Virus genome (UHGV): UHGV-1373641
Length of the DNA: 64,000 bases
Reading direction: 5' to 3' (one strand)
Origin: a virus
Shown: one piece after another, positions 11,898-52,643 of the stretch
Layout: every line of letters begins with the position of its first letter
How positions within the stretch are numbered: position 1 is the first letter of the stretch
The notes under the pieces: generated by a model
What the model was told of the DNA's origin: nothing
Databases searched by the model: none
The model's input: the letters and a program-made list of their open reading frames with translations, nothing else
Program-made: the position numbers and the translations under genes

Positions 11898-14033
11898 TTA
11901 AAGGAACATAATAAACGGATCTGACGCCTCTTCTTCTTTATCTTCCATAGCCCTAGCGATAGCCATAATCATAGCAACCATCGGGTCGATTTTATTTTCA
12001 TTCGCCGTTTTGGTCATATAGACAAGTTTATTTGTCGTAGATTTCAGGACAACATTACCAGCGGCGAAGTTGAGGATGGGGTCATTCTGGTGGAAAAGTT
12101 CCCCATTAAGGTACGCAGCTTCAAACTCTTTCATCGGCTCAGAGAAAGTGGCAGAGGATTGGGTAAACTCAATACATTCAAAAGCTGCCCATTCCCGGAT
12201 ATTCTGCATAAGATATTCGGCTTCCCTAGGGTCATATGCTACTTCCTGAATAGCATATTTATCAGCCCAATTTTGCAGGTCTTCTTCCAGAGCGTGATAG
12301 TCCGTTCGAGCTCCTTGCGTTACGGTCAGCCAGCCTTCATCTCGCCAGCCCCGATAATGGTCATTCTCCGGCCTATCTACAGTATCAGAAGGAAGATAGT
12401 ATTTTCCGAAAACATAGAATTTACCATCGCGCTTAAAGACGGCAACCATTGCAGTTAAGTCGACTTTAGAGGCTAAGTCAATGCCAATCCAGCATTTCTC
12501 GCCTTCAAAATCTTCCATCTTTAGATTTCTGTCAGTACAATTAAGCCATTTAGGAAAGTCAATCCATCCCACTGATTCGTTGTTCCAAACATTCAACATC
12601 TTGGTAAGAATAGAGGAGCGCTTGTACTGTGATGATTTGGCTATTTCGTATTGCTCGCGCAAGAACTCTTCGGATACGGAAACTCCGAAGTTCGGACTGG
12701 CTTTAATCCAGCACGAAAAATCTTCCCATTTATCCGTGTCATCAATGGTAAACTCCATGTAAAATAATCGGTCGTTCTTTGCTTTCCCCAACACGACCTT
12801 TCTGCCTTGCTCTACATAACGATAGCAAGGCCCTTTGATGTTCGTCCCTGCGGTAGTAGTAACAAGCAAGAGAGGATGCTGTCTAGCGCCCATACCGAGC
12901 TTCAACGAGTCATACAGCGCGTCCGAAGGATGTTCATGATACTCGTCAACGATAGCGCACTGAGGGTTACTACCATCCTTTGGGCTTCCGATAATAGGTT
13001 TGAACGTAGAAAGTGTCGATTGTGCATGAATAGACTCTTTAGTATAAGTCAGGCCGAATGCCTCTTCAAATGCTTTATTGGCAACAATCATGTCCCGAGC
13101 AATGTTGAACAGCACAAATGCCTGAACTTCCGTGGTTGCGCCACAGTATACTTCCGAACCTTTTTCTTTTTCACCAACCAACATATAGTGTCCAATAGCC
13201 GCCGCAAGGCTGCTATTGTGAGTCGGAATATACGTTTCCCCGCAAAGATACATTCCATCCTCATTATCAACCTGTATACACTTCACTGGAACGCTTTCCA
13301 CAGGCTTACAATCTGTAATGAATCTTACCACAGGCACCGTCTCGCCATCATGCCGTTTTACATTCGGGGCCACCCACACTTTAGGCTTTCTGCCATTGTG
13401 AGACAGAATTTGATGCAGACTTTCGGAGGTTACGATATTCTTACCGTCGATTTTCCAAAGATGCTCCGCGTCGGCAGTAATAACGGAACCATCACTGAAA
13501 GAAATTTCATAGCACGGCCTTCCGTACATCACTTCCGTTACGGCTACTACTCTCCGTATATCCGAATTTGGCCCATAAACGGCATCTCCGGGCTTTAAAT
13601 CATTCATCGTGACCCAACCCTCGGGAGTAGGGATTGGAGTGCTTACAGCTAAAGCCTTGCCAGCTTTTCGGGGGACGATAAGGGCGGCCTCCCTGTACCT
13701 GCGGAGATTGTTTTTCTTATCCAGCCACCCAAAGATGTTTCCAACGAAGAATTTCTGCCAAGGCTCAAGCTTTAATCTTTTTCCAGTAAGAACGCCCTTG
13801 ACATGCACCATATTTTCAATAAAACAAATTACTCGGATAGACGATTCTTCCGAAAAATAAAAATCGAGGTCTTTATTGGCAAGATCATCTTTAAAGTTTT
13901 TGCACAATGCTCTAATGTATTTACAGACCTGAATATTTCCGTTAAGAACATTGTCGGCGTACCAATGGATGTCGGTGATATGCTTTTTGTTTTGATTGAA
14001 TTGTTTAGTCGTTATGGGTTTTACATTAGCCAT
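11898..14033 (-). CDS. terL: Terminase large subunit (Terminase_1-like ATPase plus nuclease) interrupted by a mini-intein
   Basis: Walker A is VPRKAGK|...|SSLAAAIG. The C-terminal nuclease region is typical of large terminases. The MANVK start at 14033 follows SD ggagagga. Extein about 564 aa. Confidence 0.85.
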   Translation of the reverse strand: MANVKPITTKQFNQNKKHITDIHWYADNVLNGNIQVCKYIRALCKNFKDDLANKDLDFYFSEESSIRVICFIENMVHVKGVLTGKRLKLEPWQKFFVGNIFGWLDKKNNLRRYREAALIVPRKAGKALAVSTPIPTPEGWVTMNDLKPGDAVYGPNSDIRRVVAVTEVMYGRPCYEISFSDGSVITADAEHLWKIDGKNIVTSESLHQILSHNGRKPKVWVAPNVKRHDGETVPVVRFITDCKPVESVPVKCIQVDNEDGMYLCGETYIPTHNSSLAAAIGHYMLVGEKEKGSEVYCGATTEVQAFVLFNIARDMIVANKAFEEAFGLTYTKESIHAQSTLSTFKPIIGSPKDGSNPQCAIVDEYHEHPSDALYDSLKLGMGARQHPLLLVTTTAGTNIKGPCYRYVEQGRKVVLGKAKNDRLFYMEFTIDDTDKWEDFSCWIKASPNFGVSVSEEFLREQYEIAKSSQYKRSSILTKMLNVWNNESVGWIDFPKWLNCTDRNLKMEDFEGEKCWIGIDLASKVDLTAMVAVFKRDGKFYVFGKYYLPSDTVDRPENDHYRGWRDEGWLTVTQGARTDYHALEEDLQNWADKYAIQEVAYDPREAEYLMQNIREWAAFECIEFTQSSATFSEPMKEFEAAYLNGELFHQNDPILNFAAGNVVLKSTTNKLVYMTKTANENKIDPMVAMIMAIARAMEDKEEEASDPFIMFL
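13215..13655 (-). mobile_element. 147-aa mini-intein (Hint domain, no endonuclease) in the TerL P-loop
   Basis: It starts with Ala (ALAVSTPIPT...), ends ...YIPTHN, and the +1 residue is Ser. Block B has a Trp (EHLW) and there is an internal Cys (VKCIQV), so Ala1, W, C and T-H-N match the class-3 'WCT' pattern. Confidence 0.7.
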
Positions 14034-14083
14034 TGAAACTCCTCTCCTTATCTGATAAAATGATATTTTCAATATATCTTTGA

Positions 14084-14112
14084 AGTATATCTTCATTCTA
14101 TATTTTTGTCAA
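14084..14112 (-). promoter_or_regulatory. Near-consensus sigma70 promoter TTGACA-N17-TATACT driving terL
   Basis: On the minus strand it reads cttgacaaaaatatagaatgaagatatact. Confidence 0.55.
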
Positions 14113-17478: not shown

Positions 17479-17577
17479 AATAAAGCCCCCAAGTGATGAT
17501 TAACATCATGGGGGCAATATAGCGCAGAGTTTTAAATATTGAAATGCGTCCACGACCGTCGACGGAGTTATTTAAGA

Positions 17578-18858
17578 TTATCCGAATATACGGTATGTTC
17601 CGATTTTTATATTACCATAGATCTGTATTTTAATTTCAGTAACTTTATTTTCAGTGAGTGAGGGGGGCGTATTGTTTTCCCATTGAATAGGTTCGGAAAT
17701 CGTTAATGCAGCAGAGGTATTCGCGGCTTTAAGTATAGCGTGAAACTCATAGAATTTATCAGATTGTAGTCCTGCTGGAAGTGTTACGGTAAAAGCGCGG
17801 TCCACTGTAACGATATGGGTTACGGAAGGAATTAATTCGACAGAAACGTTTCCTGCGCCAGAAGACAAACTTTGGATATTTCTTTCCAACGCGAAATCTA
17901 TATTTTTGGTTCCATTAACAATAGCTTCCGCTTTATATACTCCGGAAATATAGAATGTCCTAGGAGTTTTCCATTGGGTAGCCGTTGCAGCATTGCCGGA
18001 CACATTTGTTTGAGCTGGATGAACATGGTCGCCTCTAGCGAATGCGTTTTCCGAACCTATATTGGCTACGCCAAGAGCTTTTGGAGTAGTTGTCGTAATT
18101 TTTGCATGACCATATTGAGTAGTGGATGATACACCAAATCCAGTTCCAACATACGCATGATTTATGGGCTTAAAAGCATTAGGTATTCCAGAAAGAAGGC
18201 TCCAATCGGATTTTGACTGATACGCATAAAACGCTGCCATTGTACCAAGTGCGCCGTCATCGACCACAGCGTACATAAGAGGCTTCGGCTCTTTGACAAT
18301 TACAGAGTCACCATTTTGTACATCTTTGATTGTCAAGGAAAGCATTGCAGCTTCATTGGTAACTATGGTGAATCTTTCTTTGACCGATTCCGGAATTTGA
18401 GAAGGATCAAGCTCAGGGCTACTTCCAGAACCGAAAGACCATTCAGGGTCGCCGGAAACATAGAATGTAATCGCAGCGCTATTTGCAGAGCCTACGGAAC
18501 CGGAAACAGGTACAGAGGTTGGGTGCCCCATGAAGGCTACGCTAGTCCCTGTCTCAGTAAAATCGATGCGATAAGGAATGTTGACCGCAGACTTGCTATC
18601 AGCAATCAAAAGATTCTGGTGAATCGTGTTTAAATCATCAAAATACAAGGTTATGGATGAGCTTCCGCTCTCTCGGATTCCGGGAGCGTATACAGTGGCT
18701 TCATCTTTAATCGTCGTCATATCAATCGATTGGATGGTGGGTGTTGGGGCCGCCCAATCCGAAATGCCATTAATTATCTGCCATGATGTCGTTGCAAGGT
18801 CTACTCCTGTTCCCCGGAAAAAACGAAGACCTTTGCTTGTGCGAGGTTCGTATGCCAT
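17578..18858 (-). CDS. Fiber-like protein whose N-terminal ~145 aa is paralogous to the major tail protein at 37392..38195
   Basis: PRTSKGLRFFRGTG / ARTSKGLKFFRGTG, HQNLL in both, and FMGHPTSVPVSGSVGSANSAAITFYVSGDPEWSFG / FMGQLTGMPLSGGVGAANTTTYTFDVSGKIEWVFG. The C-terminus has the fiber-like LGVANIGSENAFARGDHVHP. SD aaggagg. Confidence 0.6.
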   Translation of the reverse strand: MAYEPRTSKGLRFFRGTGVDLATTSWQIINGISDWAAPTPTIQSIDMTTIKDEATVYAPGIRESGSSSITLYFDDLNTIHQNLLIADSKSAVNIPYRIDFTETGTSVAFMGHPTSVPVSGSVGSANSAAITFYVSGDPEWSFGSGSSPELDPSQIPESVKERFTIVTNEAAMLSLTIKDVQNGDSVIVKEPKPLMYAVVDDGALGTMAAFYAYQSKSDWSLLSGIPNAFKPINHAYVGTGFGVSSTTQYGHAKITTTTPKALGVANIGSENAFARGDHVHPAQTNVSGNAATATQWKTPRTFYISGVYKAEAIVNGTKNIDFALERNIQSLSSGAGNVSVELIPSVTHIVTVDRAFTVTLPAGLQSDKFYEFHAILKAANTSAALTISEPIQWENNTPPSLTENKVTEIKIQIYGNIKIGTYRIFG

Positions 18859-19100
18859 TATTTAGCCTCCTTCTTGCTTAATTTCCTTACTAGCCAAGCT
18901 GGAGGCGTTTGAGTTTTGACTTGATAAAACTCAGGTTTTACCTTTCTCAGAAAAGTCGCTCCGCATACGGCACAAGTATAGGTCGATCTCTCTTCCATTC
19001 CTAATCGATGTAAATGAGTATCTTCAAAAGCTACTACGGTTGTTTGATAAAAAGCCCTTTCTTTGCAAACGGGACAAATATTAGCGTCGGATGTAGCCAT
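18858..19100 (-). CDS. Zn-ribbon protein
   Basis: CPVCK...CAVCG. Confidence 0.4.
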   Translation of the reverse strand: MATSDANICPVCKERAFYQTTVVAFEDTHLHRLGMEERSTYTCAVCGATFLRKVKPEFYQVKTQTPPAWLVRKLSKKEAK

Positions 19101-19945: not shown

Positions 19946-20482
19946 TTAAGCAGTAATAATATCTACGGTTATCGCCTTTACTTCGTCAATAGTAGTACAA
20001 ATTTTAAGTTTGTCTTCTAGAGCTTGTCGTTGCCCAATAATACGTGCCGATAAAATCGAAAACTTATCTGCTTTAAGAATAACCTTATTTACAAGATCCG
20101 GCAATGCGATTCCTCGTGTTTTAGCAAGAATAGAAAGAAAAGGCGTAGGAGATTCTGGGTTTTTAAGATATGCGCGTGCCTCTAGTTCTTGTTTTCCAAA
20201 AGAATCGATCTCTTTTTCAGGGTACGTAGATACAATTTTTGAAATAGCTGAATCCGCAGCCGTATTAATCTCTTCAAGTTTTAATGCTTTTACATCTTCA
20301 AAAGTTGGTTCTGGGGGAATATGAGGATACTCTTCTGTTACACATTCGGGATGATTCGTAATATAAGTATTAATTTCATCCCACAATTTAGCGTGTTCTT
20401 TAATATATGGATGAACTTGATAAGGCATCCCATATTTTTGGATAACAAACGAATCATCTGAGGTACGCAGGATAACTTTCAT
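19946..20482 (-). CDS. Tail fiber assembly/chaperone-like protein
   Basis: Immediately downstream of the tail fiber. The C-terminal EEINTAADSAISKI...EARAYL resembles tail-fiber-assembly (DUF4376-like) proteins. Confidence 0.4.
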   Translation of the reverse strand: MKVILRTSDDSFVIQKYGMPYQVHPYIKEHAKLWDEINTYITNHPECVTEEYPHIPPEPTFEDVKALKLEEINTAADSAISKIVSTYPEKEIDSFGKQELEARAYLKNPESPTPFLSILAKTRGIALPDLVNKVILKADKFSILSARIIGQRQALEDKLKICTTIDEVKAITVDIITA

Positions 20483-20491
20483 TTTTTTACC

Positions 20492-22090
20492 TTACTGACT
20501 AATTTTAAAAGCACAAATAGATACACCCGAAGTTTTGCCTCCGATACCGGATGCGTTTCCAATCCATGATCCGCCAGCGGCGACACCACAATAGCAGAAA
20601 TTATTTCGATCCGGAAAATTTGCGTACTTTAACCACAACCAAGTCCCTCCCGCAGGTAGATTTGCTTGACCATGCGATTGCCAAGTTGCATAAATAGTTG
20701 GAGTGGCCTGTCCAGCATTATTTGCCCAATTACAAGAATTAGCATAATTTACAGAGAAGTTTGAAGGATTCCAAACTTTAATATTTACACCGTCATTACT
20801 TCCCCACAACCATTGTGGCTGACCACCCTGACCATCCCAAGCAAAATTCATATCCGCGCCACCAGTATTACGTAGATACTGTGAAGTTCTAGCAACATCG
20901 GCGGTTACAGCGAGACAATCAACGGTAGCTCTTTCTCCATATTGTTTCTTAAATGAAAAAGTACCATCACTTTGTAAGTGAAGAGTTCCAGCAGCTTTAC
21001 CACTCCAATGAAAACCAATCGAAGGCGCATATCCTATGTCTGATTGTGTATTACCAACACCGTCATTTTCTCTAATTTCTATCGCCGCAGTACTATATCT
21101 CGCATTAACTGAGCTATTATAAGTCCCCCGCAATCCGCCAATCCTTCCGGTCATAGTCCCGCCAGTCAAAGGCAATTTCGTATCCGCGTAAGATTTGAGA
21201 TTCATCAATGCTTTTGCTGATGCGGCGACAACAGATGAGTTTGTGGTGTAATTATCTGTTAAACCTTCGGGGACACGATACCACGGGGTCCAAGTACTTC
21301 CGGTATTTTGAGTTAGTCTCCAAAATCGACCTGTATTATTGTAATTAATATAGTCTTGATGAGAATACGTGGCATAAGCACGGACATCCAATGACCCGCC
21401 TACATTATTCTTTGGGAAATTTACTAATGCATCGCCATTATTAAACCAATATCTACCATTTCCCGTAAATAAATTCGCATCTGTACCGATACCTCGGCCC
21501 ATTGCAAGTCCACCTATTTGACCCCTCCCTTTTGCGGTAGTGACATTAGCGTCTACTACTACACTCGGAGTTTGAACATCATTCGCGCTACCATCTGTAC
21601 GACCTGTACCGCCCCGTGCGAAAGGAAGAACTCCAGCCGTAAGATTACCTACGTCATTCGTACCGAGATTGGCGCGAGCCTGTGCAGCGGTAGAAGCTCC
21701 TGTCCCCCCTTTCGCAATAGGATTGACCGTAGTAAGTTCGTCAGCCTGTGTAGCATTGGGAGCCCGTCCGGAAATATTTCCGGGAATGACACCCTTAGAA
21801 TCACGGACTACTATGGAATTGGCAATAATCCCTGCATTAGCATGAAACCCGTCGAGCCTATCAACATTGAAAGCGTACTTGCCAGTACCGTTATCCAGAG
21901 CATTCCAAACCGTTCCGCTTTTCATTTGGAAATTCATTGCAGATTGATTGAAGATGATAGTACCTTCCGGAGCATTGTCAGCAAGATCCCCTCGCATCCT
22001 CGCAATAAGTTTTGCAAGTTCTCGAATGGAATCAATATCCGATGCTATTTTATTGGATATTGCTGGTGCTGAAAAATTAGGATTTGCCAT
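20492..22090 (-). CDS. Tail fiber protein
   Basis: Contains the canonical fiber repeat NPIAKGGTGASTAAQARANLG, then GGTGRTDGSAN. The C-terminal domain is Gly/Asn/Thr-rich. Confidence 0.75.
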   Translation of the reverse strand: MANPNFSAPAISNKIASDIDSIRELAKLIARMRGDLADNAPEGTIIFNQSAMNFQMKSGTVWNALDNGTGKYAFNVDRLDGFHANAGIIANSIVVRDSKGVIPGNISGRAPNATQADELTTVNPIAKGGTGASTAAQARANLGTNDVGNLTAGVLPFARGGTGRTDGSANDVQTPSVVVDANVTTAKGRGQIGGLAMGRGIGTDANLFTGNGRYWFNNGDALVNFPKNNVGGSLDVRAYATYSHQDYINYNNTGRFWRLTQNTGSTWTPWYRVPEGLTDNYTTNSSVVAASAKALMNLKSYADTKLPLTGGTMTGRIGGLRGTYNSSVNARYSTAAIEIRENDGVGNTQSDIGYAPSIGFHWSGKAAGTLHLQSDGTFSFKKQYGERATVDCLAVTADVARTSQYLRNTGGADMNFAWDGQGGQPQWLWGSNDGVNIKVWNPSNFSVNYANSCNWANNAGQATPTIYATWQSHGQANLPAGGTWLWLKYANFPDRNNFCYCGVAAGGSWIGNASGIGGKTSGVSICAFKISQ

Positions 22091-23163: not shown

Positions 23164-25146
23164 TTATCTAATTAAATCTGAAAGTTGACTATCTGTTAAA
23201 TGCGCAGGGAAAACGACGCACTGTTTCGTGGTACCCATAGAAAATTCGATTGTTCTAGTATTTTTTACGGAGTTATATGCCCGTTTTCCATCACCCTCAT
23301 TAAAGAAGAACGCTTGACGTACAGGATTAAATAAAAATGGAGAGTCCTTTGTCGGATATACGTTAGTATAGATATCAGTAGCACGAGTAGTTGCGCTATT
23401 GTTAATGAGTGGGATATAGGATGAATATCCAGCCCCTATTTCATGCTGAATATTCCCAACTAAAATGGAGGAAAAAGAGTCTCCATCTATTCGAGTATTT
23501 CCAGTTGAATCCGCAAAATATATAGCGGAATAAAAACCATACGATGATTCTACCACAGAGTATTCTTCTAATATTCTTGCTCCAATAGAAATTTGTGTCC
23601 ATCCATTCCGCATTTTTTCTATAGTAGTCCTCCATCTTACATTTGAGGATGCTGGTTTAATAACTTCTATGAGGGAACTTGTTTCTAGATTATATGAAGC
23701 GGCGTGATACCCTGTCGTTCCCGTAATGTCGGAGCCCATTTTTATTTGAATATAATTATGATTTATGGGCTTTACTACTAACGAAAATGTTATATCCTCG
23801 TTTAGATGGTTTGGGATATCGGAAGCGGCATACAATCTGTGCATCAGATAATGGTACGAATTCAAACTTGCATCAAGTTTTAAGATGTATGCTGGACCTA
23901 TAAATTTATCTTGAGTTTCTTCTTTTGTTATTTTAACGGCGGTGAGTGTTTTCGCATAATTCGTTCTTTGTTTTTCAGTGAGCGTAGAAATGAATTTACC
24001 TGTTTTATTATCATATAAAGGCCGTTCAACGTCATTTCCGACAGTTCTCATATATCCTTTCGCATCAAAATACGTAGCTTGTGATGCTCTAGTAAACGTA
24101 ATCCCGTTATTTATAGAAAACTTGTCTTCGGCTCTTGTAACTTGGGCGGTTCCTTCCGTAGGAATCGGGGATGTTGGTTTAGTATCAAAATCTTCGGCTT
24201 CTTCCATTTGGGGACAAGCGTACCAGAAAGCGGATGTTTTATCTCCATCTAATGTAACATTAAAAGTTCCATTCGCTGTTTTTTCCGCAAAGGATAATTT
24301 AATACCTGTTCTCGCCGTAGCTCCAGTAACACCTTTGATCTTAAACCAGATTCGATACCATTTATCCCCCAGATTTTCTAATCTAAAATTATCATCGGTC
24401 GCATTAGCTGATTTTAGTTCTATCATACCAGTTTTTGCGTTCACAACAACCCTGCGACCACTACCCTCAATTGCAATATAGTTAGGTGTATCAATGCTAA
24501 TGTACGGAAAAGGGCTATTTGGATCGGGTCTAAATAAAATAGAAACAAAATAATTCTTATCATCGCTAGGAATTTCACCAAGAGCAAATATTCCTTGGAC
24601 ACTATTTTGAACGGAACCACATCGAAATTTAGTTACACCTGATTCGACTTTAAACTTATATGACGCACTTGTTTCCGGAGCATGAATGACATTTGAATCC
24701 ATACCCGAGACACTAATTTGGGAAATGAGGTTCGTCCGCTGTGGCTCACGAAGCCACCCAAGGCATTCACCCGTAATGGGATTATGCTCAATGCGAGGAA
24801 CGTTTGCTTCATGCGTCCGTAGAACTCCATCAGGCCCCCAACACGTAGCTGATGAATTACGAGTAAACGTGATTTGCGGAGGAATCTTTCCCCAAGAATA
24901 TTCATATTCATCAGCGAAAAGATTGAGGGAAGGATTCCGGGGAAGGACGTTAAATAAAGACAGGCTGTCTTGAATTGATCGCCCTTCCCCGGTTGACGAA
25001 CTCCCGATAAGCACCCATTCAGTACCATTCCAATATTCAAAATTGCGTTTTGAGTAATTCCATCTTACGCAATCCGTACTCAGATTTGATCTGAATGATG
25101 ATTTCATGCCGACAATAACGTCAACTTTAGAAGGTGCTTCTGCCAT
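23164..25146 (-). CDS. Large tail or receptor-binding protein
   Basis: Its position is just downstream of the J-like protein. Beta-rich composition. Confidence 0.45.
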   Translation of the reverse strand: MAEAPSKVDVIVGMKSSFRSNLSTDCVRWNYSKRNFEYWNGTEWVLIGSSSTGEGRSIQDSLSLFNVLPRNPSLNLFADEYEYSWGKIPPQITFTRNSSATCWGPDGVLRTHEANVPRIEHNPITGECLGWLREPQRTNLISQISVSGMDSNVIHAPETSASYKFKVESGVTKFRCGSVQNSVQGIFALGEIPSDDKNYFVSILFRPDPNSPFPYISIDTPNYIAIEGSGRRVVVNAKTGMIELKSANATDDNFRLENLGDKWYRIWFKIKGVTGATARTGIKLSFAEKTANGTFNVTLDGDKTSAFWYACPQMEEAEDFDTKPTSPIPTEGTAQVTRAEDKFSINNGITFTRASQATYFDAKGYMRTVGNDVERPLYDNKTGKFISTLTEKQRTNYAKTLTAVKITKEETQDKFIGPAYILKLDASLNSYHYLMHRLYAASDIPNHLNEDITFSLVVKPINHNYIQIKMGSDITGTTGYHAASYNLETSSLIEVIKPASSNVRWRTTIEKMRNGWTQISIGARILEEYSVVESSYGFYSAIYFADSTGNTRIDGDSFSSILVGNIQHEIGAGYSSYIPLINNSATTRATDIYTNVYPTKDSPFLFNPVRQAFFFNEGDGKRAYNSVKNTRTIEFSMGTTKQCVVFPAHLTDSQLSDLIR

Positions 25147-30823: not shown

Positions 30824-31345
30824 TTATCCGTTATAAAAAAGACTGTAAAAATATGCTTGAACAAATCTAAGCCACGGCACGGGTTCTTGAGAAGCCGTAT
30901 TCAAGGAAATGCTGGCATCTACAGTTTGGGCGTTGATTGTTACGGAAGATAAATCAAATTCCGGATACACAGTATCAACAATATCCGGAAAAGCGGTGGT
31001 AACTATTTCAAAAGTTACTTTAGGAGTGCGTCGATCTGTTTTAACAAGATACGGTGCTATATACCGAGAAACATTGTCGATTGAAATTTTGCATTCAGGA
31101 GGTGTCTCTTGTCTGGAGTCCGGGGCAATAGCTCTCATGGGAATATAAAGAAATTCTTTGCCACGGGATATCGTTCCGTAGATAGGAAGATTAGTTTCCG
31201 TATCATTCCTGAGAAAAACCGTAGGGTCGGACGATAGATAAATAGGTTCCGTCCAGCTTGGATGCGTAATTGTCAAAAGAACTATGTCGGCGTTATCCGT
31301 TTCCTGCGCCATCATCGACGCCACCGTACTAGGCGAGAGGGGCAT
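30824..31345 (-). CDS. gpL-like minor tail protein
   Basis: Its position and size, between the M-like and K-like genes. Confidence 0.45.
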   Translation of the reverse strand: MPLSPSTVASMMAQETDNADIVLLTITHPSWTEPIYLSSDPTVFLRNDTETNLPIYGTISRGKEFLYIPMRAIAPDSRQETPPECKISIDNVSRYIAPYLVKTDRRTPKVTFEIVTTAFPDIVDTVYPEFDLSSVTINAQTVDASISLNTASQEPVPWLRFVQAYFYSLFYNG

Positions 31346-31715
31346 CGTAAAAAACCTCAAAGGTAAAATCTACTTTCCATAGGCCGGGAGCGATGAAATT
31401 TATTTCATACAATTCCGTGTCCGACTTCGGCATTATACGTACTTTTACATTTTTGTCAAGTCTAGGATGAGGAAATTCAAAGGCTTTTGCCCCACCGCCA
31501 AGAATTGTTCGGATAAAGGTTTCTAATTTTTTAGTAGCTGCCGTAGTCATTTTAAAAGATACATTCATTTTTCCGGGAGTCGCGCTTCCCCTCCGTCTAA
31601 CTTTACTCGGACCTGTATCCATAGTAGACACAAGAAGGTTGGACGGCATTGATTCGGAGTACCCTCCGTCTGCGAAGGGTACTTGAGGAAGATCTGCGGG
31701 CCAAATAATACTCAT
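31329..31715 (-). CDS. gpM-like minor tail protein
   Basis: The start MSIIWPADLP overlaps the TMP stop. Its position and size match lambda M. Confidence 0.45.
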   Translation of the reverse strand: MSIIWPADLPQVPFADGGYSESMPSNLLVSTMDTGPSKVRRRGSATPGKMNVSFKMTTAATKKLETFIRTILGGGAKAFEFPHPRLDKNVKVRIMPKSDTELYEINFIAPGLWKVDFTFEVFYDAPLA

Positions 31716-31719
31716 ATAA

Positions 31720-34700
31720 TCACCGCTTAATCGTCGGGGGAGTAGCCCCGGTTTGAGTTCTGATAGCATAATTGGCTTTGGTGCCGGGAGTAAGCATCTG
31801 CTGTGCAGCGACATCACCAATTATAACATCTATGCTTTTTGACCCATTTGCATTCTGAGTTTGTTTGGTTTGCGCCTTTTGACCAGTAGAGTTATAAACA
31901 TTTACAAACACCTCGGAAGATGAAGAAGATGTGGGTCGGCTCGACTCATTTTCTCGTTTGGAAATGACGCCGAGTTTACCTGAGCTTGTTCTCGTCAAAG
32001 GCATAATAGCTTCGGGTCCAGCTTCTCCCATCAATCCAGCACCATTGGCATACTGGCTGATTTCTTTTCCGTAAGAGAAAAGAGTCGGTGAAGTTACTAT
32101 CGAATTGCTATGACCAGAAATTCCAGTCATCACGCCACCATTGGCTTTTCTATTAATACCGCCGAACCAAGACGAGAATGAAACCGCATTATCGGCACCG
32201 CCTCCACCGCCAATACCTCCGGTGAAGAGGCCAAGCGCAGATTGGAGAATGCCGGACATAAGCTGTTGCGCAAGCAATTTTGACAGGCTTCTGATCATGT
32301 CATTGACCAAGCTATCAAATGCCTCTCCGAAGGACTTAAAGTCTCGCATACCTCCTACCACAAAATCAGATAAGGCGGCAGCCATGCTATCCGTAGTAGA
32401 GGTTACTACTTCTCCCAATCCAAGAGCATAGTTCTTGTGCTGATCATAGTAGTCTTTGATACCAAGTTTCAGATTATCTAAAACACCACCAGACGTACGG
32501 ATTCTCTGTTCCGCCATCCATTCATCAATACGGGCAACGGTATCGGCATATTCTTGTTCAGCGGCGATTCTTTCTTCTGTGGAAGAGAACGCGGAATTGG
32601 ATATAGACCTATAGAGCTTCTCAGCGGTGTCTTTCCATTGCTTAGATTGCTTTTCATAGGATTTAAGTGCGGCCTCACCCTTATCGCCAGAAACGATTTC
32701 GGAATAAGCCCTTTCAAAGTCCATCAACTTTTCACGAAGATCATCGACAGCTTTTTTTTCTTTTTCCGCTTGCTTGGCGAACAATCCTTCTTTGAGCTTG
32801 TTGCTCAGGAACTCTTGCGCCTCAGCAACGGAATGTAATCCATCAGGAAGCTCATCTTTGTAGATTTCCGCGACTTTTTTAATATCAAGTTTATGTGTAG
32901 CCAGTGAAGCGTTTAATTTTTCAATTTCGGCTTCAACAATTTTTGCGAAGTTCGTTTCGGTTCCAAACAACTTCTGTACGCGAACATCAAATCCTTCAAT
33001 ATCAAATTCAGGGATTTTCTTTGGCTTTTTATTTGCGTCTCTTTTTGCTTTGCGATTAGCCTCTTCTGCGGCAACAAGAGCTTCGGATTTTTCAGCGATT
33101 TCTTTATAGACTTTAGCTACATCTGCGGCTATTTTATTTCCTTGTGCATTAAGGAGATTCGTAAAATCACCGGATTCTATAGCTTCTAATATCTGTTTCT
33201 CCTGCCCTTTTTGAAGTTCTTTCATTGATGAAAGAGTAGTCAAAGCAGCACGAGAGGTCTTACTCCCTACTGTTGCTAATTTACCTTCAATAGCAGCGAG
33301 TTTTTGTTCCGCAGATTGGAGTGCCGCAACAGACAACGCAGAATTTAGTTTTGTTCTAAACTCGTCAATATCTTGAGATGAAAGATGGAAAGTCTCCCCA
33401 AGTTTTTCAATAATTGAATCGAGAGTAGAAGCGTCCGCTCCAGAAGATACTGCCGCCTCAGCTACAAGCCGGAAAGCGTTATCAAGTTGACCAGATTGAC
33501 TAGACATAGAATCAAAAGCTGATTCAAGCTCTCTCATCTTTTCTTCGGTCAAAGTATTGGCGTTCTGCTGTTCAGTATATGCTGCAAGGAGATTCCGAGT
33601 CTTGTTTTCCAACTGCTCTTGAGCTTCGGACATTTGGAGAAGTCCGCGAATCTGAGCCTCGAAGTCTTCCTGCCCGGCAAGCTGCTTGCCAAATTCTGTG
33701 GTCTTTGTTCCTTTACGAATAGCTTCATAGGCTTCCGCGAATTTAGCTATGCTATTCCCGCTTTTGTTCGCTTCTCCGGTGAGTGCTTCCAACGCCGCTT
33801 TAGCTGCATCTGCGGTATCTTTTGCATTGAGAATGGCACCACCGAAATTATCCCATTGCTTAATGACCTCTTCGGATGCACCAGCTTCTTTCATGCCATC
33901 TTTGATAGTACGGAACATGATCTTGAAACGATCAAGAGTGTTCTTAATCATTTCATCTCTGGCTTTCGGGTCGGTTTCTTCGTTTAATGCTTTATCAATA
34001 GCATCACGAGTCTCTTTAGCAAGCTTAACGGCTTGACTTCTTAATGTAAAGAGAGCTTCTGAATCAGTATCGGAAAGAGGCCCGAGTATGGAATCAAAAA
34101 AACTAATCACCTTAGTAGAAGAGAATACGTTAGGAAGCTCTTGAAGGGCTTGGATAAAGTCCATCTGGCGCTTTACGTATTCACCGCTAAGATATTGTTC
34201 TTGGAGTCGTTTATTGGAATTTGAAAGATTGTTCTGGCTTGCCGCAGCCTTTTCAGACTTACTGGCAATCTCGTCGAAGCTCTTGGCATATCCGGAAATA
34301 AACTTTTCGGAGTCAGACATCTGGTTGCTAAGAGCGTATGCCGCAGTACCTACAGCGACTAGCGCAGTGACGGTAAGCGCGATAGGATTGGCGTTAAAAG
34401 CAAGTGCGAATTTAGCGATTACAGCTTGTGCGGCTTTCATTATGCCGGAAGTTTCCGCTGCGGCTACTCCAGTTAAAGTGAAAGCAGTCCTGAGATTCTT
34501 GAGCGCATCTACCGCAACACCGAAAGCCGTAGTAACTTTAAGCGTTGTATATACAATCCCAATCCACTTCACGAAATTCATTATTGAATCAATGTTCTGT
34601 CCAATGAATTTCGTAATTTCCGTAAGTACGCGAATAAAAGCTGCCGCACCCTCAGAATCCATCATTGCGGATTTAAGGTCAAACCATGCGGTAGCCAATC

Positions 34701-37391: not shown

Positions 37392-38195
37392 TTAAACGAA
37401 AGTGATAGCAATATCGGTCTTCGTACTGCCGGAAATGAGATTCGCATCAGCATTAGCAAAAGCGCTATCCATAAAAGTCAAGGCGATATTAGAAACATCT
37501 GCCTTATTAGTAGCGGCTCCAGTGAAAGACAATTCAGCAACCGTATCACTAACTTTCTTAAGAGCACCAACAAGTCCCGCCGGGGCATTAGCCAATTTAT
37601 AATGCGTATTTGCGGTAAAGTTTGCGGCGTTTTCAACGCTCGTAGTAAATTTAGCAGTAGATTCCTTACCCGGAATAAGCGTTACAGTAACTTTACCAGT
37701 CACAGCGCCAGACGATTCAGTGCCAGCGAGTGTGCTATCCCAACTCAAGGTTGCGCGTTTACCACCAAAAACCCATTCAATCTTGCCGGAAACATCGAAA
37801 GTGTACGTAGTCGTATTCGCAGCACCGACACCACCAGAAAGCGGCATCCCGGTAAGCTGGCCCATGAAGTACATAACCGTACCCGTGGGGAATTCTACCT
37901 TACACGGACGGTAATCACGAGAGTACAAATCTTGCGTCAGCAAATTCTGATGCGTTTCACAAAGGTCATCAACATAACCGTTAAAAGTAATAGTGCCGTT
38001 ATCAGGAATATCCGAGATTTTTTCTACGGCTTCCGATTGAGTAGTCGTAACGGTAATTGTAGGTTTGGAAATGTTAGGTCCATTCCAAGCCGAAATTCCC
38101 GGAACGTGTTCCCATACTGCCGTAGCGAAAGAAGACCCCGTACCACGGAAGAATTTCAGTCCTTTACTCGTTCTGGCTTGATAAGATACAGCCAT
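37392..38195 (-). CDS. Major tail protein
   Basis: Its position is just upstream of the G/GT pair. SD gaaggag. The N-domain is paralogous to 17578..18858. Confidence 0.7.
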   Translation of the reverse strand: MAVSYQARTSKGLKFFRGTGSSFATAVWEHVPGISAWNGPNISKPTITVTTTQSEAVEKISDIPDNGTITFNGYVDDLCETHQNLLTQDLYSRDYRPCKVEFPTGTVMYFMGQLTGMPLSGGVGAANTTTYTFDVSGKIEWVFGGKRATLSWDSTLAGTESSGAVTGKVTVTLIPGKESTAKFTTSVENAANFTANTHYKLANAPAGLVGALKKVSDTVAELSFTGAATNKADVSNIALTFMDSAFANADANLISGSTKTDIAITFV

Positions 38196-46127: not shown

Positions 46128-46571
46128 CTACAACTTTACGATTCTTTGGTTATTCGATGCCAACTTTATTCCGAATAAAGGTTCTATATAAGATGGTTTT
46201 GTTTTATCATACATTCCGAGCTTGGCATATTTTAACAGGTGGTGAAGCGGCTTAGGAATTTTTTCATATCTTGTCCATAACCAAATCTCCTGAAAATACG
46301 CATTCAATCGAATGATAAAGTTTTGAAGAGAAATCAAATTCTGATCAAGAGGTTCTCCTCCCAAAATCCAAACTTTTTTTACTAATAGTTCACTGTCTTT
46401 AAAAAGTCCAGAATTTTCTTGAGTTTTAAGCCATTCCTGATACGGAATCCCCTGATTGAATTCCCAAAGTTCTTTGTTATGACATCCCTCACAATGAGGT
46501 GCCTTACATCCGGAAAGATATATTTCCAGTGCCCGATGAGCCAGATTAAATTCTGTGCCCGCTACTCGCAT
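46128..46571 (-). CDS. nrdG: Anaerobic ribonucleotide reductase activating protein
   Basis: SGCKAPHCEGCHNKELW parallels the E. coli NrdG SGCVHECPGCYNKSTW radical-SAM cluster motif. Adjacent to nrdD. Confidence 0.65.
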   Translation of the reverse strand: MRVAGTEFNLAHRALEIYLSGCKAPHCEGCHNKELWEFNQGIPYQEWLKTQENSGLFKDSELLVKKVWILGGEPLDQNLISLQNFIIRLNAYFQEIWLWTRYEKIPKPLHHLLKYAKLGMYDKTKPSYIEPLFGIKLASNNQRIVKL

Positions 46572-49507
46572 CTCATTTCTTCCTTACCATAGAACTGGCG
46601 ATTGGGACGGTCTTTTTCACGGCGAACCTTATTCCAATTTTTTACATTAGTAAAGAATCCGACAACACGGGTAATCTCCTCAGACCATTCTTTGCCACAG
46701 GTAGGGCATCTGTCGGAACCCACCCAAGTATGGTTATCATCGCAGATCCGAAGAAGATAGTTTACTGCCCAATAAACAACGCCAGACTTTGCGGCATAGA
46801 TGATAAGGTCTTCGATGTTCTTCGTGTCCTCAATTCTCTCACCAACATTGACATGGCAAATCGCTCCACCCGAAAACAATCCATCGAATTTTCCTTGGAG
46901 TCTAATACGGTCGAGCATATTGGCTTTAGCGATAAGCGGAATAAACTGATTCGAATAGAAGGATACTCCACAATCGTAACCAAGGACTTTATCTTTCTTC
47001 GCGAGTTTCACAGAGGATGACTCGGCAGGAACCTGTTCACAATTATGAGGAGCTTGATACAATTCTTGAGCTTCATCAATCCAAAGGTTAATCTGTTCAA
47101 GAGTCCGCATCACAAGATCTTGCCCATCCTCATCCAAAATGTCCTTTCCGAGGATGCTCACTGCTTCATAGAGTCCGGTGACTCCAAAAGTCGAATATTG
47201 TTTAGTAATATCCATGTATCCATGCGTGTACAAAGGCGCTGCGCCAAGGTCAATTCGACGCTGTACAATCTTGCGTTTAGCGTTATTGATTTTCGCTGCG
47301 GTAAAAAACGCATCCCTAAGCTTATCAATAAACACGCCCTCATCTCCCCCCGACTGCATTGCAAGGCGAGGGAAGTTTGCCGTCACAACACCAAGAGATC
47401 CAATTTTTGTGCTTCCGGAGCCGAAAGAATTAAAATACTCATTTTTCCTGTCCGAGCGCAAACGACAGTTATGGGTGATTACGCCATTGGGCAAAGTGAA
47501 GTAAGGTTCTTCCGGATTCTGCATTTCAAAACAATATACGTATTCTTCGTCGTAAGGAACTTCTTCGACACTTTCTACCTTAAAATACACAGAGTTGTTT
47601 CTTACCTTGTATACGCCCGGATGCTCACGACGATTCTTCAAATCATACCAACGGATACAATATAGGGGGTAATTCCGAGAATAGTTCTTTCCGCGAATCT
47701 CCACCAACTCATCAGTGCGATCCGACAGGTCGATGTTGCTAACCATACCCAGAGAAGTAAGGATGGCTTCTCCAGTTTCGATAAGCTCTTTAGACGTAGA
47801 ATAAATACGATTGCTATTTCCTCCGTCAGTTGCATACCATCCGGCGATGATGCCCTTGCGGAACTCTGTGGATTGAAGAAGAATGTTCATATCAAACGAC
47901 TTCTCTTCCGCATAAGAACCTTTAACATACTTCCCAATAATATCATATATCGCCTTAGAATAAATTTTGGCAAACACAACTTTGTTCCGGGACGGATTAA
48001 TATGGAAGTCCTCTTCAATACCCCAATCTTTTGCGGCTTGAATAAGCGTGTCGATACAACCGCGCTTCGCTTCACTCAAAGAAAAAGTCACATCGTAACT
48101 TTCGACGCCCTCTCTTGCATATCGGCTTCCATCGCCAGCATAGGCCCCAATGAGATACCCCTGAGCATAGGTAAGGTGCTCATCTTTTTCATTATAAGAG
48201 TTAAGCTCCCTCATACTGAATCCGATATAATCATCAGTAGTCAAATCAACAGTAGTTTTATCCCCAGAGAGAGTATAGTTGATATGATTATCCGTTACAA
48301 CAAATTCCTTCTTATTAGAAAGAACGACCTTATACATCTTATGGCCCAAAACAGGAAGCATCACGGGCTTTGCCTTGACCCAAGACCCATTGTGGAATAC
48401 AGCGAAGTTCTTCCTATAAAGATCATAGTTGGATGATTTTACGATATCACGAATATCCGCAAGAACCACGCCATTACTGGATTTCGTAAGGACTTTCTGC
48501 CCTCCAGAAAAACAGCATGAACTCAAAGTTGACATTTTGCCATTATACATATTGATAAATCCGAACTCTTTGTTCTTCTCAGCAATGAACTTTACAAAGT
48601 CCTTATCTACGATATTTCGGTCGTCATCAATAGAAAAACAAGCTGTCGTTACGGGAAACGTAAGAGGCGTTCTCCGCATCTCTTCATTCATGGCGTCGAG
48701 GAAAAGCCCCTGCAACTCATGAACAGTTTCAGGATTAGCGGCTTTTCCGTCCATCATGTAATCAGGACAGAGGGATTCAAGGAAATTACGGTCGAATACA
48801 GAAAGATTGGAAAATGGGCTTTGATTTCCCCGGAATTCCCAATTCACCGTATAAATAAAATTGATAAGTTTTTCCTTTACATATGTTTTATAATCATCAA
48901 CTTTAATCCGACCATCGTATCCGATCTTTTTCATTTTTTCTACGAAAAGAGATGCCACAATAAGAAAATCTGCAAATCCGGTAGCTCCCAAGGTTGAGTT
49001 TGCAGCAACAACCATAAACTGTTCTACTTGACGCACAAACGTCTCCAAAGATTTAGGAGCGCTCACACGAACTCGCTTAGATACGCCTTCCAAACCATTA
49101 AGAGCGATATCATAAGTAGAATAATTAAAACAATAGGGAAGGGCTACATCAGTGGAGTCGTTAACATAAAGATCACCACGAAGCACTTTTTCCACGACAG
49201 TATTAGCTTCAAGGAGCCCATAATCCTTTTTAATCTGTTTCCAGAGGAGGAAATAACTATTGTACTTTTTAATGGGCTTCGGCATTTCATGATTATACTC
49301 AATAGATGTCCGCGCACATACATTGGCATTAGAGTCTACGGAAACATCTGCCGTTGTAGTATCCGTATTAAAAAAATCTTTAGAAAACTTATTGATATCC
49401 ATCTGATCGCCAATTCCATCCAAGGTCAAAAAGTCCCTGCCATATTTAGCGATAAGATACATCATAAGGTCATAGAACTCTTGATCCCAAGTAATCTTAA
49501 TATGCAT
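46562..49507 (-). CDS. nrdD: Anaerobic ribonucleoside-triphosphate reductase (class III) interrupted by an intein
   Basis: C-terminal Zn ribbon CDDNH...CPTCG plus glycyl-radical-like RVVGFF. Extein about 632 aa. Confidence 0.75.
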   Translation of the reverse strand: MHIKITWDQEFYDLMMYLIAKYGRDFLTLDGIGDQMDINKFSKDFFNTDTTTADVSVDSNANVCARTSIEYNHEMPKPIKKYNSYFLLWKQIKKDYGLLEANTVVEKVLRGDLYVNDSTDVALPYCFNYSTYDIALNGLEGVSKRVRVSAPKSLETFVRQVEQFMVVAANSTLGATGFADFLIVASLFVEKMKKIGYDGRIKVDDYKTYVKEKLINFIYTVNWEFRGNQSPFSNLSVFDRNFLESLCPDYMMDGKAANPETVHELQGLFLDAMNEEMRRTPLTFPVTTACFSIDDDRNIVDKDFVKFIAEKNKEFGFINMYNGKMSTLSSCCFSGGQKVLTKSSNGVVLADIRDIVKSSNYDLYRKNFAVFHNGSWVKAKPVMLPVLGHKMYKVVLSNKKEFVVTDNHINYTLSGDKTTVDLTTDDYIGFSMRELNSYNEKDEHLTYAQGYLIGAYAGDGSRYAREGVESYDVTFSLSEAKRGCIDTLIQAAKDWGIEEDFHINPSRNKVVFAKIYSKAIYDIIGKYVKGSYAEEKSFDMNILLQSTEFRKGIIAGWYATDGGNSNRIYSTSKELIETGEAILTSLGMVSNIDLSDRTDELVEIRGKNYSRNYPLYCIRWYDLKNRREHPGVYKVRNNSVYFKVESVEEVPYDEEYVYCFEMQNPEEPYFTLPNGVITHNCRLRSDRKNEYFNSFGSGSTKIGSLGVVTANFPRLAMQSGGDEGVFIDKLRDAFFTAAKINNAKRKIVQRRIDLGAAPLYTHGYMDITKQYSTFGVTGLYEAVSILGKDILDEDGQDLVMRTLEQINLWIDEAQELYQAPHNCEQVPAESSSVKLAKKDKVLGYDCGVSFYSNQFIPLIAKANMLDRIRLQGKFDGLFSGGAICHVNVGERIEDTKNIEDLIIYAAKSGVVYWAVNYLLRICDDNHTWVGSDRCPTCGKEWSEEITRVVGFFTNVKNWNKVRREKDRPNRQFYGKEEMRCE
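47468..48514 (-). mobile_element. 349-aa intein with a LAGLIDADG homing endonuclease, in NrdD
   Basis: CFSGGQKVL... (Cys1), LAGLIDADG motifs YLIGAYAGDGS and IIAGWYATDGG, C-terminal ...GVITHN then the +1 Cys (CRLRS). Confidence 0.8.
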
Positions 49508-49591
49508 GTGCTTTCCTCTTTTTTTTATTTATGTTTTTATACATTTTTCAATGGCTAAATATTGACATCTAGCCATTGAAATTTTTTCTAT

Positions 49592-50047
49592 TTACACACC
49601 AGTGCTGCCAAACCCGCCAGTGCCTCGAACGGTTGTGGAAAGCTCCTCAGTCTCCACCCAATCGACAGGAAGATACGGAACAATGACAATCTGGCAAATC
49701 CGATCGCCCGTTACATAAATTTTATTCGCAAGGCTAGGATCTTGGAAGTAATTCTTGGGAATACGGAAGACAGCCTTGATCTCTCCGCGATAATCGGAGT
49801 CAATGACGCCTACGCAATTAGAGAGCGTCATTTCCTTCTTGAATACAGAAGACCGAGGAAACACGAGGCCCACGTACCCCGCAGGGATTTCCATACCGAT
49901 TCCGGTTCCATAGGTAACAAGCCCTTTATCCCAATCGATATCGCAGGTGACTGCATGGAGGTCATATCCAGCGGACCAATCGGTTCCACGGAGGGGCATA
50001 CTGGCATTTTCATGAAAACGCTTGAAGTTGATAATGTGATTGCTCAT
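49592..50047 (-). CDS. dut: dUTPase
   Basis: SAGYDL, RSS and GVIDSDYRGE motifs. Confidence 0.85.
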   Translation of the reverse strand: MSNHIINFKRFHENASMPLRGTDWSAGYDLHAVTCDIDWDKGLVTYGTGIGMEIPAGYVGLVFPRSSVFKKEMTLSNCVGVIDSDYRGEIKAVFRIPKNYFQDPSLANKIYVTGDRICQIVIVPYLPVDWVETEELSTTVRGTGGFGSTGV

Positions 50048-50061
50048 GTAGATTCTCCTTA

Positions 50062-50715
50062 TTAGTTAAAGATTGTATATCCGATAAACATCTTCTCAGG
50101 ATAGGGCATTTTCCCATTTTCAAGAAAAATGATTCCCTTTATAATCTCGGGGAGATGTTTAAGAACATTAATTTTTTCATCCGGGGATACTCCTACGATA
50201 TTAGATAAATTACGAACATATTTTTTTGTATCGTTTTCGTGAGGAGGTCCCATTCTATACACCATGCTCCGCAATGTGTCAAGGCCGTTCTTGTGTTGAT
50301 AATTCTTTAGATTTTTTGCACAAGCCCGGATACCATACTCAGGGGATTCAAAAATGATGAACTTGCCATCACTTCCAATTTGACCGTCCCATTTCGTATT
50401 CTTCGAGCTTTTGAGATTACAAGGATTGTTATTCCGCAATCCTCTAGTATCTCCATACGTCTCTTTTTTATCTTGAGACGTATTTTCCTTTTTTTGATAA
50501 GGGGCTTCTAACTTCTGCTTCATAATAGCATTTTCAGAGGCCATACTTCCTAACGCTGTACTTAAAAATTCTATCTTATGATGAAGTTCCTCTATCTGAA
50601 TATTCTTACTTTTTCTAAAATTTGTAAGTGTTACATAATTATGTACTGAATTAGCAATAAATACGCTAATTAAAAGAGCTATAAGAATCCTATCCAAATA
50701 ATTGAATTTAAACAT
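50062..50715 (-). CDS. N-terminally membrane-anchored protein with a conserved RGLRNNNPCNLK motif
   Basis: TM ILIALLISVFIANSV, then a coiled segment and a globular domain. Confidence 0.35.
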   Translation of the reverse strand: MFKFNYLDRILIALLISVFIANSVHNYVTLTNFRKSKNIQIEELHHKIEFLSTALGSMASENAIMKQKLEAPYQKKENTSQDKKETYGDTRGLRNNNPCNLKSSKNTKWDGQIGSDGKFIIFESPEYGIRACAKNLKNYQHKNGLDTLRSMVYRMGPPHENDTKKYVRNLSNIVGVSPDEKINVLKHLPEIIKGIIFLENGKMPYPEKMFIGYTIFN

Positions 50716-50880
50716 CCACCCTACCTTAATATTTTTTATCTACTATTTTCAATTCTTACGTTTTCCCAATATTCTCTTTCGGCTTTTTCACATTTTTGAA
50801 AACCCCAAATGAAAACAGAAACAAAAACCGCCAATAAAATCATACCTTTGATTTTCATAATAACTATTTTCTTTCTGTGT

Positions 50881-51486
50881 TTATTCATTATTACTCTCTC
50901 CCTTTACGGCAGGGATAAACCTATCATCAAGATACATGAGAATCTGGTCGCAGAAAAACCTCCATTCTTTCAGCTTATGGTTCTTGCGCTGATGGTACAT
51001 ATTCCGAAGAACCTTATAATTAGTACATACGATTCTCCGCTGCAAAAATCCTTCGGGGAGATTTTCTTTTACACCTTCAAAGTCCTTTTCGTCAATCATT
51101 TTATTCAGAATATCGATAATTTCCTGACGAACTTTGTCGGAGAAATCGTCCTTCGTGAGATGCCGCTTCATAATCGTGTGCATCGTAGACTCGGACTGTT
51201 TGGATGTTCCCACACGATAGGTATCGAATTGCGACCAGAAATAGCGGGGTGCAGTAATATCGATCCAAACTACGATACTTTCTAAAAATTTATTATGCCC
51301 TCCATCAAGTCCAGCAAGTTTATGCGCACGAGCAGAAAGTTTATTTAAAGTATTTTCGGCTTTCACCCTCCCATCGCATTCGATGTCGCCTATAGTTTTA
51401 TCAGACGTAAGGCCATAAGACAAACCCATCCCAAGAAACGCAGCGACGTGTCCAGCTTCCCCAATAAACTCAACTTTCATGTTCAT
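50881..51486 (-). CDS. ThyX-like flavin-dependent thymidylate synthase (tentative)
   Basis: Its size (about 200 aa) and the motif block RYFWSQFDTYRVGTSKQSESTMH resembling the ThyX R..F.eQ..RhR..S..SqS region. The MNMKVEF start follows SD. Confidence 0.35.
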   Translation of the reverse strand: MNMKVEFIGEAGHVAAFLGMGLSYGLTSDKTIGDIECDGRVKAENTLNKLSARAHKLAGLDGGHNKFLESIVVWIDITAPRYFWSQFDTYRVGTSKQSESTMHTIMKRHLTKDDFSDKVRQEIIDILNKMIDEKDFEGVKENLPEGFLQRRIVCTNYKVLRNMYHQRKNHKLKEWRFFCDQILMYLDDRFIPAVKGESNNE

Positions 51487-51499
51487 TTGTTTTTCCTTC

Positions 51500-52621: not shown

Positions 52622-52643
52622 TTGAACTCCTTATTTCCAATAA

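Follow-up and report, generated by a model that had tools for sequence, protein, structure and literature searches.

The virus genome UHGV-1373641 was analyzed over a stretch of 64,000 nucleotides (nt), referred to here as the window, which carries on its minus strand a gene for a 426-amino-acid (aa) protein that joins a paralog of the phage's own tail-tube subunit to a fiber-like C-terminal part. This gene, hereafter the target gene, is separate from that of the real major tail (tube) protein (MTP) and lies 18.5 kb downstream of it, after the fiber genes. Its coordinates and its separation from the tube gene agree with an earlier sequence-only reading of the same DNA, which had described a second tube-type gene fused to a fiber-like C-terminus. 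The gene, its domains and the other features discussed below are collected in Table 1.

Residues 1-143 of the target protein align with residues 3-144 of the MTP at 45% identity and 60% positives with one gap (BLASTP, E = 3e-35), a similarity far beyond chance. Both proteins match phrog_158, annotated as 'major tail protein' (2.4e-12 for the target and 1.6e-17 for the MTP). Moreover, the target exceeds the curated cut-off of PF16460 (Phage_TTP_11; 28.4 bits) both as a whole protein (30.1 bits) and as the isolated N-domain (34.3 bits), so that its profile membership in the lambda-like tube family (PF16460/PF16461, phrog_158) passes a curated threshold. The proposed N-terminal paralogy thus withstood formal pairwise and profile alignment, and all of the shared motifs cited for it, RTSKGL(R/K)FFRGTG, HQNLL and FMG...SG.VG.AN...F.VSG..EW.FG, are present. 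Beyond the common domain, the C-terminal parts comprise 121 aa in the MTP and 283 aa in the target.

Structurally, the N-domain adopts a tube-protein fold. In the AlphaFold2 model its core reaches a predicted local distance difference test score (pLDDT) of 70-83; the domain shows strands, a single helix (aa 78-89) and a disordered loop (aa 36-64). The full-length model is poor outside this domain. In a Foldseek search of the PDB, lambda gpV was the best match of the N-domain, followed by the tube proteins of YDC107, SPR, NF5, 80alpha, Sf11 and T1 (probability ~1.0, E down to 6e-5); a sequence search of the PDB with the whole target returned no match. The beta-sandwich with a flanking helix and a long beta2-beta3 loop can be recognized in the predicted structure, with moderate confidence only.

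The C-terminal module is related to phage fibers. An exhaustive HMMER search retrieved 1,470 metagenomic homologs at E<=1e-3 and 32 at E<=1e-30; the best match (E = 1.5e-97) is driven by multi-unit matches, and among the top 150 homologs all but one align only to residues ~148-331. The string that had been singled out as fiber-like, LGVANIGSENAFARGDHVHP (aa 262-281), falls inside this region, and together with the BLASTP and PF16460 results these homologies bear out the anatomy first proposed, a tube-type N-domain followed by a fiber-like C-terminus. The 'Gly/Ser-rich beta segment' of the same reading needs rewording, as it consists mainly of a GSGSS linker (aa 143-147) and of Ser/Thr/Gly-rich fiber-repeat sequence. 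The repeat is of the ARGDHVHP / GNAGTATKL type found in the C-terminal region of Dec, and the target holds one unit of it, at aa ~256-330. This unit has hundreds of homologs, in which it occurs up to 11 times per protein, for example in a protein of 1391 aa. The homologs look like long fibers bearing their own, different N-terminal domains, and some carry Pfam head-fiber (PF11133), Mtd_N, tail-repeat or collar domains. Because homologous fibers have a different N-terminal domain at this place, the tube domain of the target sits where the virion anchor conventionally is. Apart from the orthologs of the target and a stand-alone relative described below (P0085), none of the 227 retrieved fiber-repeat homologs has a tube domain.

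With a profile of the fiber region, matches were obtained to phage L Dec, in its C-terminal region (6e3c, E = 8.7e-9), and to the podophage PhiM1 tail fiber gp47 (8vbx, E = 1.3e-4); the entry 9d93, 'tail collar fibers gp4', was reached too weakly for significance (E = 0.78). The Dec region is a trimeric, three-stranded beta-helix, so the repeat unit of the target, by homology, probably assembles as a trimer. Of the remaining C-terminal parts, only the alpha/beta domain (aa 156-215) is confidently modeled (pLDDT 82-96), and it aligns with internal segments of long metagenomic fiber proteins. Foldseek with the C-terminal model found no significant fold match in the PDB, including for aa 156-215, and in BFVD it retrieved fiber, Dec-like and minor-tail proteins. 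The end domain (aa 331-426) is nearly an orphan, with only partial homologs (P0081, P0119 and P0160), a weak match to phrog_19200 and a low-confidence model.

Full-length orthologs, 92-98% identical to the target, occur on nine IMG/VR contigs and on several ENA and Logan contigs, which reach 86-90 kb; at least one is labeled human gut metagenome, and all those of sufficient length have the 267-aa tube gene as well. Among 50,697 phage records, neither megablast with the locus nor tblastn with the whole protein found a cultured relative, and tblastn with the MTP gave no match among cultured phages even at E = 0.01. The fiber region alone had two weak matches in the phage records, a tail fiber of Eggerthella phage LE2-3 and a fecal phage, so that these records hold no annotated relative. 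Identity to isolates does not exceed 35-40% for the capsid and the terminase. No prophage relatives appeared in a scan of GTDB genomes with an N-domain profile. Word-index searches with the N-domain and with a three-sequence profile returned only P0085; as they missed even 95% identical orthologs, they say little about the spread of the tube family.

The target gene is intact in all 13 orthologs examined, which have reached a synonymous divergence of up to ~0.8-1.0 (Nei-Gojobori method), and the ratio of nonsynonymous to synonymous divergence (dN/dS) is low throughout (Table 1). The constraint on its N-domain is as tight as that on the N-domain of the real MTP. Intactness under purifying selection shows the gene to be functional, and the duplication must be old and maintained because the two copies are only 45% identical. 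The segment of aa 221-255 is more variable, with 49% of its sites differing among the 13 orthologs and a dS of 0.76, and it exists as two alleles, ...SGIPNAFKPINHAYVGTGFGVSSTTQYGH... and ...SSVPAAFKPSAHADESATYGLATTTLYGH...; these alleles with raised dS look like the signature of cassette exchange with other fiber genes rather than of decay. An origin of the whole fiber module from another fiber gene of the same phage was rejected, as no intragenomic similarity was found; the module was imported, because it has no relative elsewhere in this genome. Such an import across a clean module boundary is also what would be expected of a functionless chimera that arose when the tube gene recombined with a foreign fiber gene. 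That possibility is nearly negligible, being contradicted by the age of the duplication and by the 13 full-length orthologs with low dN/dS (0.03-0.08), and a pseudogene or dead chimera is effectively rejected by the dN/dS analysis.

The two modules are separable in nature. P0085, a 148-aa protein on a 1.6-kb contig (sample SRR24018519), is 82% identical to the tube domain of the target, and its gene follows the same 59-, 119- and 80-aa genes and occupies the same place. The gene ends with TAATAA at the module junction, and no fiber sequence follows it in any frame of the contig. DNA homology between the window and this relative (L004) stops near window position ~18421 (~aa 146), exactly at the domain junction. 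Because the tube-like module occurs with and without the fiber, this distribution argues that the ring such a module could form is the conserved element and the fiber an add-on. A metagenome scan with P0085 recovered more genomes of the fused type only, and no longer tube-only contig.

Table 1. Coordinates of the target gene, its domains and other features of the window, with dN/dS where it was computed.
Feature	Position	Strand	Basis	dN/dS
Target gene, 426-aa tail-tube-protein paralog fused to a fiber module	17578..18858	-	open reading frame (ORF) list	0.084
N-domain, lambda-gpV-like tail-tube fold, aa 1-143	18430..18858	-	BLASTP, PF16460, AlphaFold2, Foldseek	
Predicted long loop (E-loop, beta2-beta3), aa ~39-71	18646..18744	-	low-pLDDT segments 36-44 and 49-64, analogy with gpV	
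Gly/Ser-rich linker at the module junction, aa 144-155	18394..18429	-	end of L004 DNA homology; end of P0085 gene	
Small alpha/beta domain, aa 156-215 (IP..ER...LT...QNGD.V.V...MY.V.D..LG..AF)	18214..18393	-	AlphaFold2	
Hypervariable segment with two discrete alleles, aa 221-255	18094..18198	-	site variation, dN/dS	0.236
One fiber-repeat unit, aa 256-330 (TTPKA.G.A..GSE..FARGDHVHP.QT.VSGNA.TA...T.RT...G......NG...I)	17869..18093	-	homologs, profile search	0.076
C-terminal domain, aa 331-426, probably a beta-rich distal end domain	17581..17868	-	few partial homologs, low-confidence model	0.062
Target tube domain, aa 1-145				0.034
Target aa 146-220				0.079
Real tube protein (MTP), 267 aa, partner of the paralog	37392..38195	-	gene position, phrog_158	
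Real tube protein, N-domain				0.047
Real tube protein, C-domain				0.126
GGAGG Shine-Dalgarno sequence, 7 nt 5' of the target ATG	18866..18870	-	read from sequence	
80-aa CxxC...CxxC zinc-ribbon ORF, stop overlapping the target start (TAATG)	18858..19100	-	sequence	
Stable hairpin followed by UUUAUU, directly 3' of the target	17480..17520	-	fold energy -20.8 kcal/mol, z = -4.7 against shuffles	
Large terminase	11898..14096	-		
532-aa gene and 178-aa partner	19946..22090	-		
660-aa tail protein	23164..25146	-		
NrdD and companion metabolism genes	46128..53180	-		
976-aa DNA polymerase	53269..56199	-		

Scans against PHROG, Pfam and NCBIfam place the target within one long minus-strand late operon. 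In the order of transcription, the operon begins with replication and nucleotide-metabolism genes, followed by the portal, protease, major capsid protein and connectors, and then by the 267-aa tube protein, the tail chaperone and a 1366-aa tape measure protein. A tip of the lambda/gene transfer agent (GTA) type comes next, encoded as a Dit-like protein of 163 aa (31329..31820), a DUF1833 hub, an NlpC/P60 protein and a J-like fiber of 1747 aa; after it lie a 660-aa tail protein with a GTA spike-fiber domain, two small genes, and then the 532-aa gene and its 178-aa partner. The operon closes with a 119-aa membrane protein, an 80-aa zinc-ribbon ORF and the target, after which come six genes of unknown function and, last, the large terminase. 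The position typical of the tube family, between the terminator/connector genes and the tail chaperone/tape measure genes, is therefore held by the MTP gene and not by the target. Because the canonical tube slot and every tip position are filled by other genes, the target is a supernumerary tube-fold protein; assignments as Dit, hub or terminator were rejected, as separate candidates hold those positions.

The zinc-ribbon ORF is tightly associated with the target. It was found in 14 of 15 related loci checked (in L005 its frame is disrupted near the start), is coupled to the fused and the tube-only versions of the target alike, and is 97% identical in L004, compared with 63-82% for the neighboring genes; one gene caller left it uncalled in L001. 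The encoded protein may be a dedicated partner or chaperone of the target. On the other side of the target, the hairpin listed in Table 1 is a possible terminator or attenuator, and a consensus terminator scan did not call it. It sits between the target stop and the next ATG, where its G-run may double as the ribosome-binding site of the next gene.

This setting bears on whether the target acts in the virion at all. A non-virion protein could mimic the tube subunit as a decoy or regulator, for example by diverting a DSR2-like defense or by controlling tube polymerization, and a gene that lies outside the tail block, is coupled to a zinc-ribbon gene, is surrounded by genes of unknown function and has a stand-alone tube-domain counterpart in a relative would suit such a role; moreover, a DSR2-bound tail-tube protein (8ygc) is among the structural neighbors of the N-domain. 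We nonetheless consider this quite improbable, since a fiber module of 280 aa under purifying selection (dN/dS 0.06-0.08) would then have no role, the gene is transcribed in the late structural direction with a strong Shine-Dalgarno sequence, and no defense or anti-defense family turned up, although none was tested for. The strong Shine-Dalgarno sequence and the place in the late structural operon count instead in favor of a product incorporated into the tail.

The divergence between the target and the MTP is concentrated in the predicted long loop. Over aa 39-71, an interval placed approximately from the low-pLDDT segments and by analogy with gpV, identity between the two proteins is 21%, compared with 52% in the rest of the N-domain (Fisher p = 0.002); it reaches 72% in the N-terminal 18 residues and 50% in residues 72-143. 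Between the target and P0085, its closest distinct relative, identity of the loop is 79%. The loop is therefore constrained within the paralog lineage yet different from that of the tube protein. In tail tubes the long loop forms the largest ring-to-ring contact, and its deletion abolishes tube growth (PMC8718954). In lambda (PMC10721106) and T1 (PMC11945409), terminator, tube and Dit rings all extend their long loops to the next ring in the direction of the tip. By inference, the paralog keeps the face that receives an ordinary tube ring above it and has an altered face toward what lies below.

On balance, we lean modestly toward a mechanism in which the target forms its own tube-type ring in the virion tail and displays short adhesion fibers. 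The N-terminal 143 residues, as a diverged duplicate of the phage's own tube subunit, would assemble as a tube-type hexameric ring that stacks with ordinary MTP rings, and the remaining ~280 residues (linker, alpha/beta domain, repeat unit and end domain) would project outward as short fibers, most simply as two trimers per ring, to act as an accessory host-adhesion device. The most likely position, held with less confidence than this general scheme, would be a single tip-proximal ring in the place that p140 takes in T5, with the Dit-like ring on its tip side and the first ordinary MTP ring above it, so that it would rest on a partner other than the MTP. A single distal ring is preferred because the tipward long loop is the most changed element while the N-terminal arm and the beta-sandwich are kept.

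The same loop argues against placing the ring at the other end of the tail. A head-proximal ring, under the terminator or at the neck, might carry collar or whisker fibers comparable to the lactococcal neck passage structures, and the fiber module does also resemble head, neck and decoration fibers (Dec, homologs with PF11133 and, weakly, 9d93), and the gene comes last among the late structural genes, close to those for packaging. A proximal ring, however, would need an altered proximal face, whereas it is the distal-facing loop that has diverged and the proximal elements that are conserved, and the 9d93 match falls short of significance; we therefore regard a neck ring as improbable.

The chief rival to a dedicated ring is an alternative tube subunit that co-polymerizes with the MTP along the whole tube, so that a fiber or adhesin replaces the ordinary C-terminal decoration in some subunits or rings; a second gene would then do what SPP1 gp17.1* and the TpeX of the lactococcal 936 group do by programmed frameshifting. 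In those phages, a minority of the tube subunits carries a host-binding adhesin (PMC6669499). The MTP and the target share the corresponding domain logic, a tube domain followed by alternative C-terminal decorations, and their N-terminal arm and beta-sandwich are well conserved. In the known cases, however, the tube domains are identical, whereas here they are only 45% identical overall and 21% in the contact loop. Furthermore, a trimer-forming unit would seldom meet three neighbors if incorporated at random, and the role would be pointless for the stand-alone 148-aa version, which has no decoration to add. Mixed polymerization is thus the less probable arrangement, though the foremost of the alternatives. 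The sequence-only reading had offered a tube-embedded fiber adaptor and a tail-decorating alternative subunit side by side; both still lead, and the data lean toward the dedicated ring because the distal-facing loop has diverged, a stand-alone version exists and the fiber probably needs three chains.

Several points weigh against a dedicated fiber-bearing ring. It is not trivial to match the six chains of a ring to trimeric fibers, and with only one fiber-repeat unit the target may not trimerize. The boundaries of the long loop are approximate, and loops often outpace cores in divergence anyway. Overall confidence of the AlphaFold2 models is low (mean pLDDT 56 and 62 in the two models), and only one contig, of 1.6 kb, shows the stand-alone version. 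The gene is also remote from the tube and tip genes, whereas the gene for T5 p140 belongs to the baseplate block, and the phage lineage is uncultured, so that the target is known from sequence alone.

Known tail proteins share parts of the proposed arrangement. In T5, p140 is a duplicate of the tail-tube protein pb6 and makes up a single ring, placed where the tube meets the Dit ring, for side-fiber anchoring (PMC10038345). Both p140 and the target are thus extra tube-fold proteins duplicated from the phage's own tube protein, and p140 lacks a decoration, as does P0085, in contrast to the 283-aa C-terminal extension of the target. The two also differ in that p140 is only 9% identical to pb6, compared with 45% between the target and the MTP, and in that p140 has no fiber of its own and needs the separate p132 collar, whereas the target has a fiber fused directly; no collar protein was identified, and no search aimed at a p132-like collar was made. 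The ring position is established for p140 and, for the target, predicted from sequence.

SPP1 gp17.1* and the MTP-TpeX of the 936 group, in which a subset of tube subunits carries a host-binding extension (PMC6669499), resemble the target in having a tube domain followed by an outward extension, for which host binding is proposed in the case of the target. Their extensions are immunoglobulin (Ig) domains or carbohydrate-binding modules made from the tube gene itself, while the target is a separate and distant gene with a fiber module and without frameshifting. Lambda gpV combines an N-terminal tube domain of the same Pfam clan with a C-terminal decoration, as does the target; it is, however, the sole tube subunit of its phage, and its decoration is an Ig domain of ~90 aa rather than a fiber. 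Phage L Dec and the metagenomic fiber-repeat proteins contain a repeat unit homologous to that of the target. Dec binds capsids through an OB-fold, and the long fiber-repeat proteins have their own N-terminal anchor and many units, in contrast to the tube domain and single unit of the target. The same problem, namely the mounting of trimeric fibers on a six-fold tail, is solved in another way by the Stf of Ur-lambda, whose N-terminal domains form a 12-mer ring round the Dit ring (as summarized in PMC13455828). That anchor is Ig-like and lies outside the tube wall, whereas the anchor of the target would itself be a tube-wall domain.

Literature searches found no published fusion of a tube domain to a fiber; matches to phiCbK and JBD30 proved irrelevant. 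The target could represent an undescribed form of side-fiber mounting, in which the fiber protein is itself a ring subunit of the tube wall, six tube domains give rise to two trimeric fibers, the ring is dedicated and adjacent to the tip, the tube and fiber modules are separable (fused here and tube-only in a relative), and an 80-aa zinc-ribbon partner is tightly coupled. We put this full combination forward tentatively, as a possibility that is on the doubtful side.

Other genes of the window complete the picture of the phage. The 532-aa gene, which has a chaperone-like 178-aa partner, is variable: in the close relatives L001 (7046-9169) and L002 (7034-9130) other versions stand in for the pair, with 509 or 553 aa for the larger protein and 189 or 140 aa for the smaller. 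One version carries Pfam Phage_tail_APC, and the flanking genes stay conserved. The pair is probably a swappable cassette of a receptor-binding protein and its chaperone. The 660-aa tail protein beside the J-like fiber contains the NCBIfam 'GTA head spike fiber' domain (5.6e-26); its presence alongside the DUF1833 and NlpC/P60 genes gives the tip the appearance of a GTA/lambda hybrid. The large terminase stands ~30 kb downstream of the portal; it is 711 aa long in L001 and 732 aa in the longest ORF here, which leaves its start codon uncertain. In the 976-aa DNA polymerase, two polymerase-family blocks are split by a match to the phrog_93 endonuclease (aa 735-810), which may be a homing-endonuclease or intein-like insert. 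A further cluster encodes the 981-aa anaerobic ribonucleotide reductase NrdD with an activase-like small subunit, a dUTPase, a thymidylate-kinase-like gene and an RtcB RNA ligase, a set consistent with a large, virulent phage whose gut host is anaerobic. A look for tRNA genes in the window found none.

The few siphophages whose tails have been solved to date attach trimeric side fibers to six-fold flexible tails in various ways, including Dit loops, the Ig ring of Ur-lambda, the p140/p132 collar of T5 and the central fiber of F-pyocins. Tube-protein duplicates and adhesin-bearing tube subunits are both known, and the comparison suggests that what is new here is a diverged tube copy fused to a fiber module. 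If the target instead co-polymerizes with the MTP, it would represent a gene-duplication route to the mixed tubes that are made elsewhere by frameshifting. If the dedicated ring is correct, a fiber that uses a tube-wall domain as its anchor would add a simpler solution to those listed above, and the duplication of a tube gene would have been reused for host recognition in an abundant, uncultured lineage of human-gut phages. The clean boundary between the modules further hints at a natural plug-in site, at which adhesins could be added to tail tubes by engineering.

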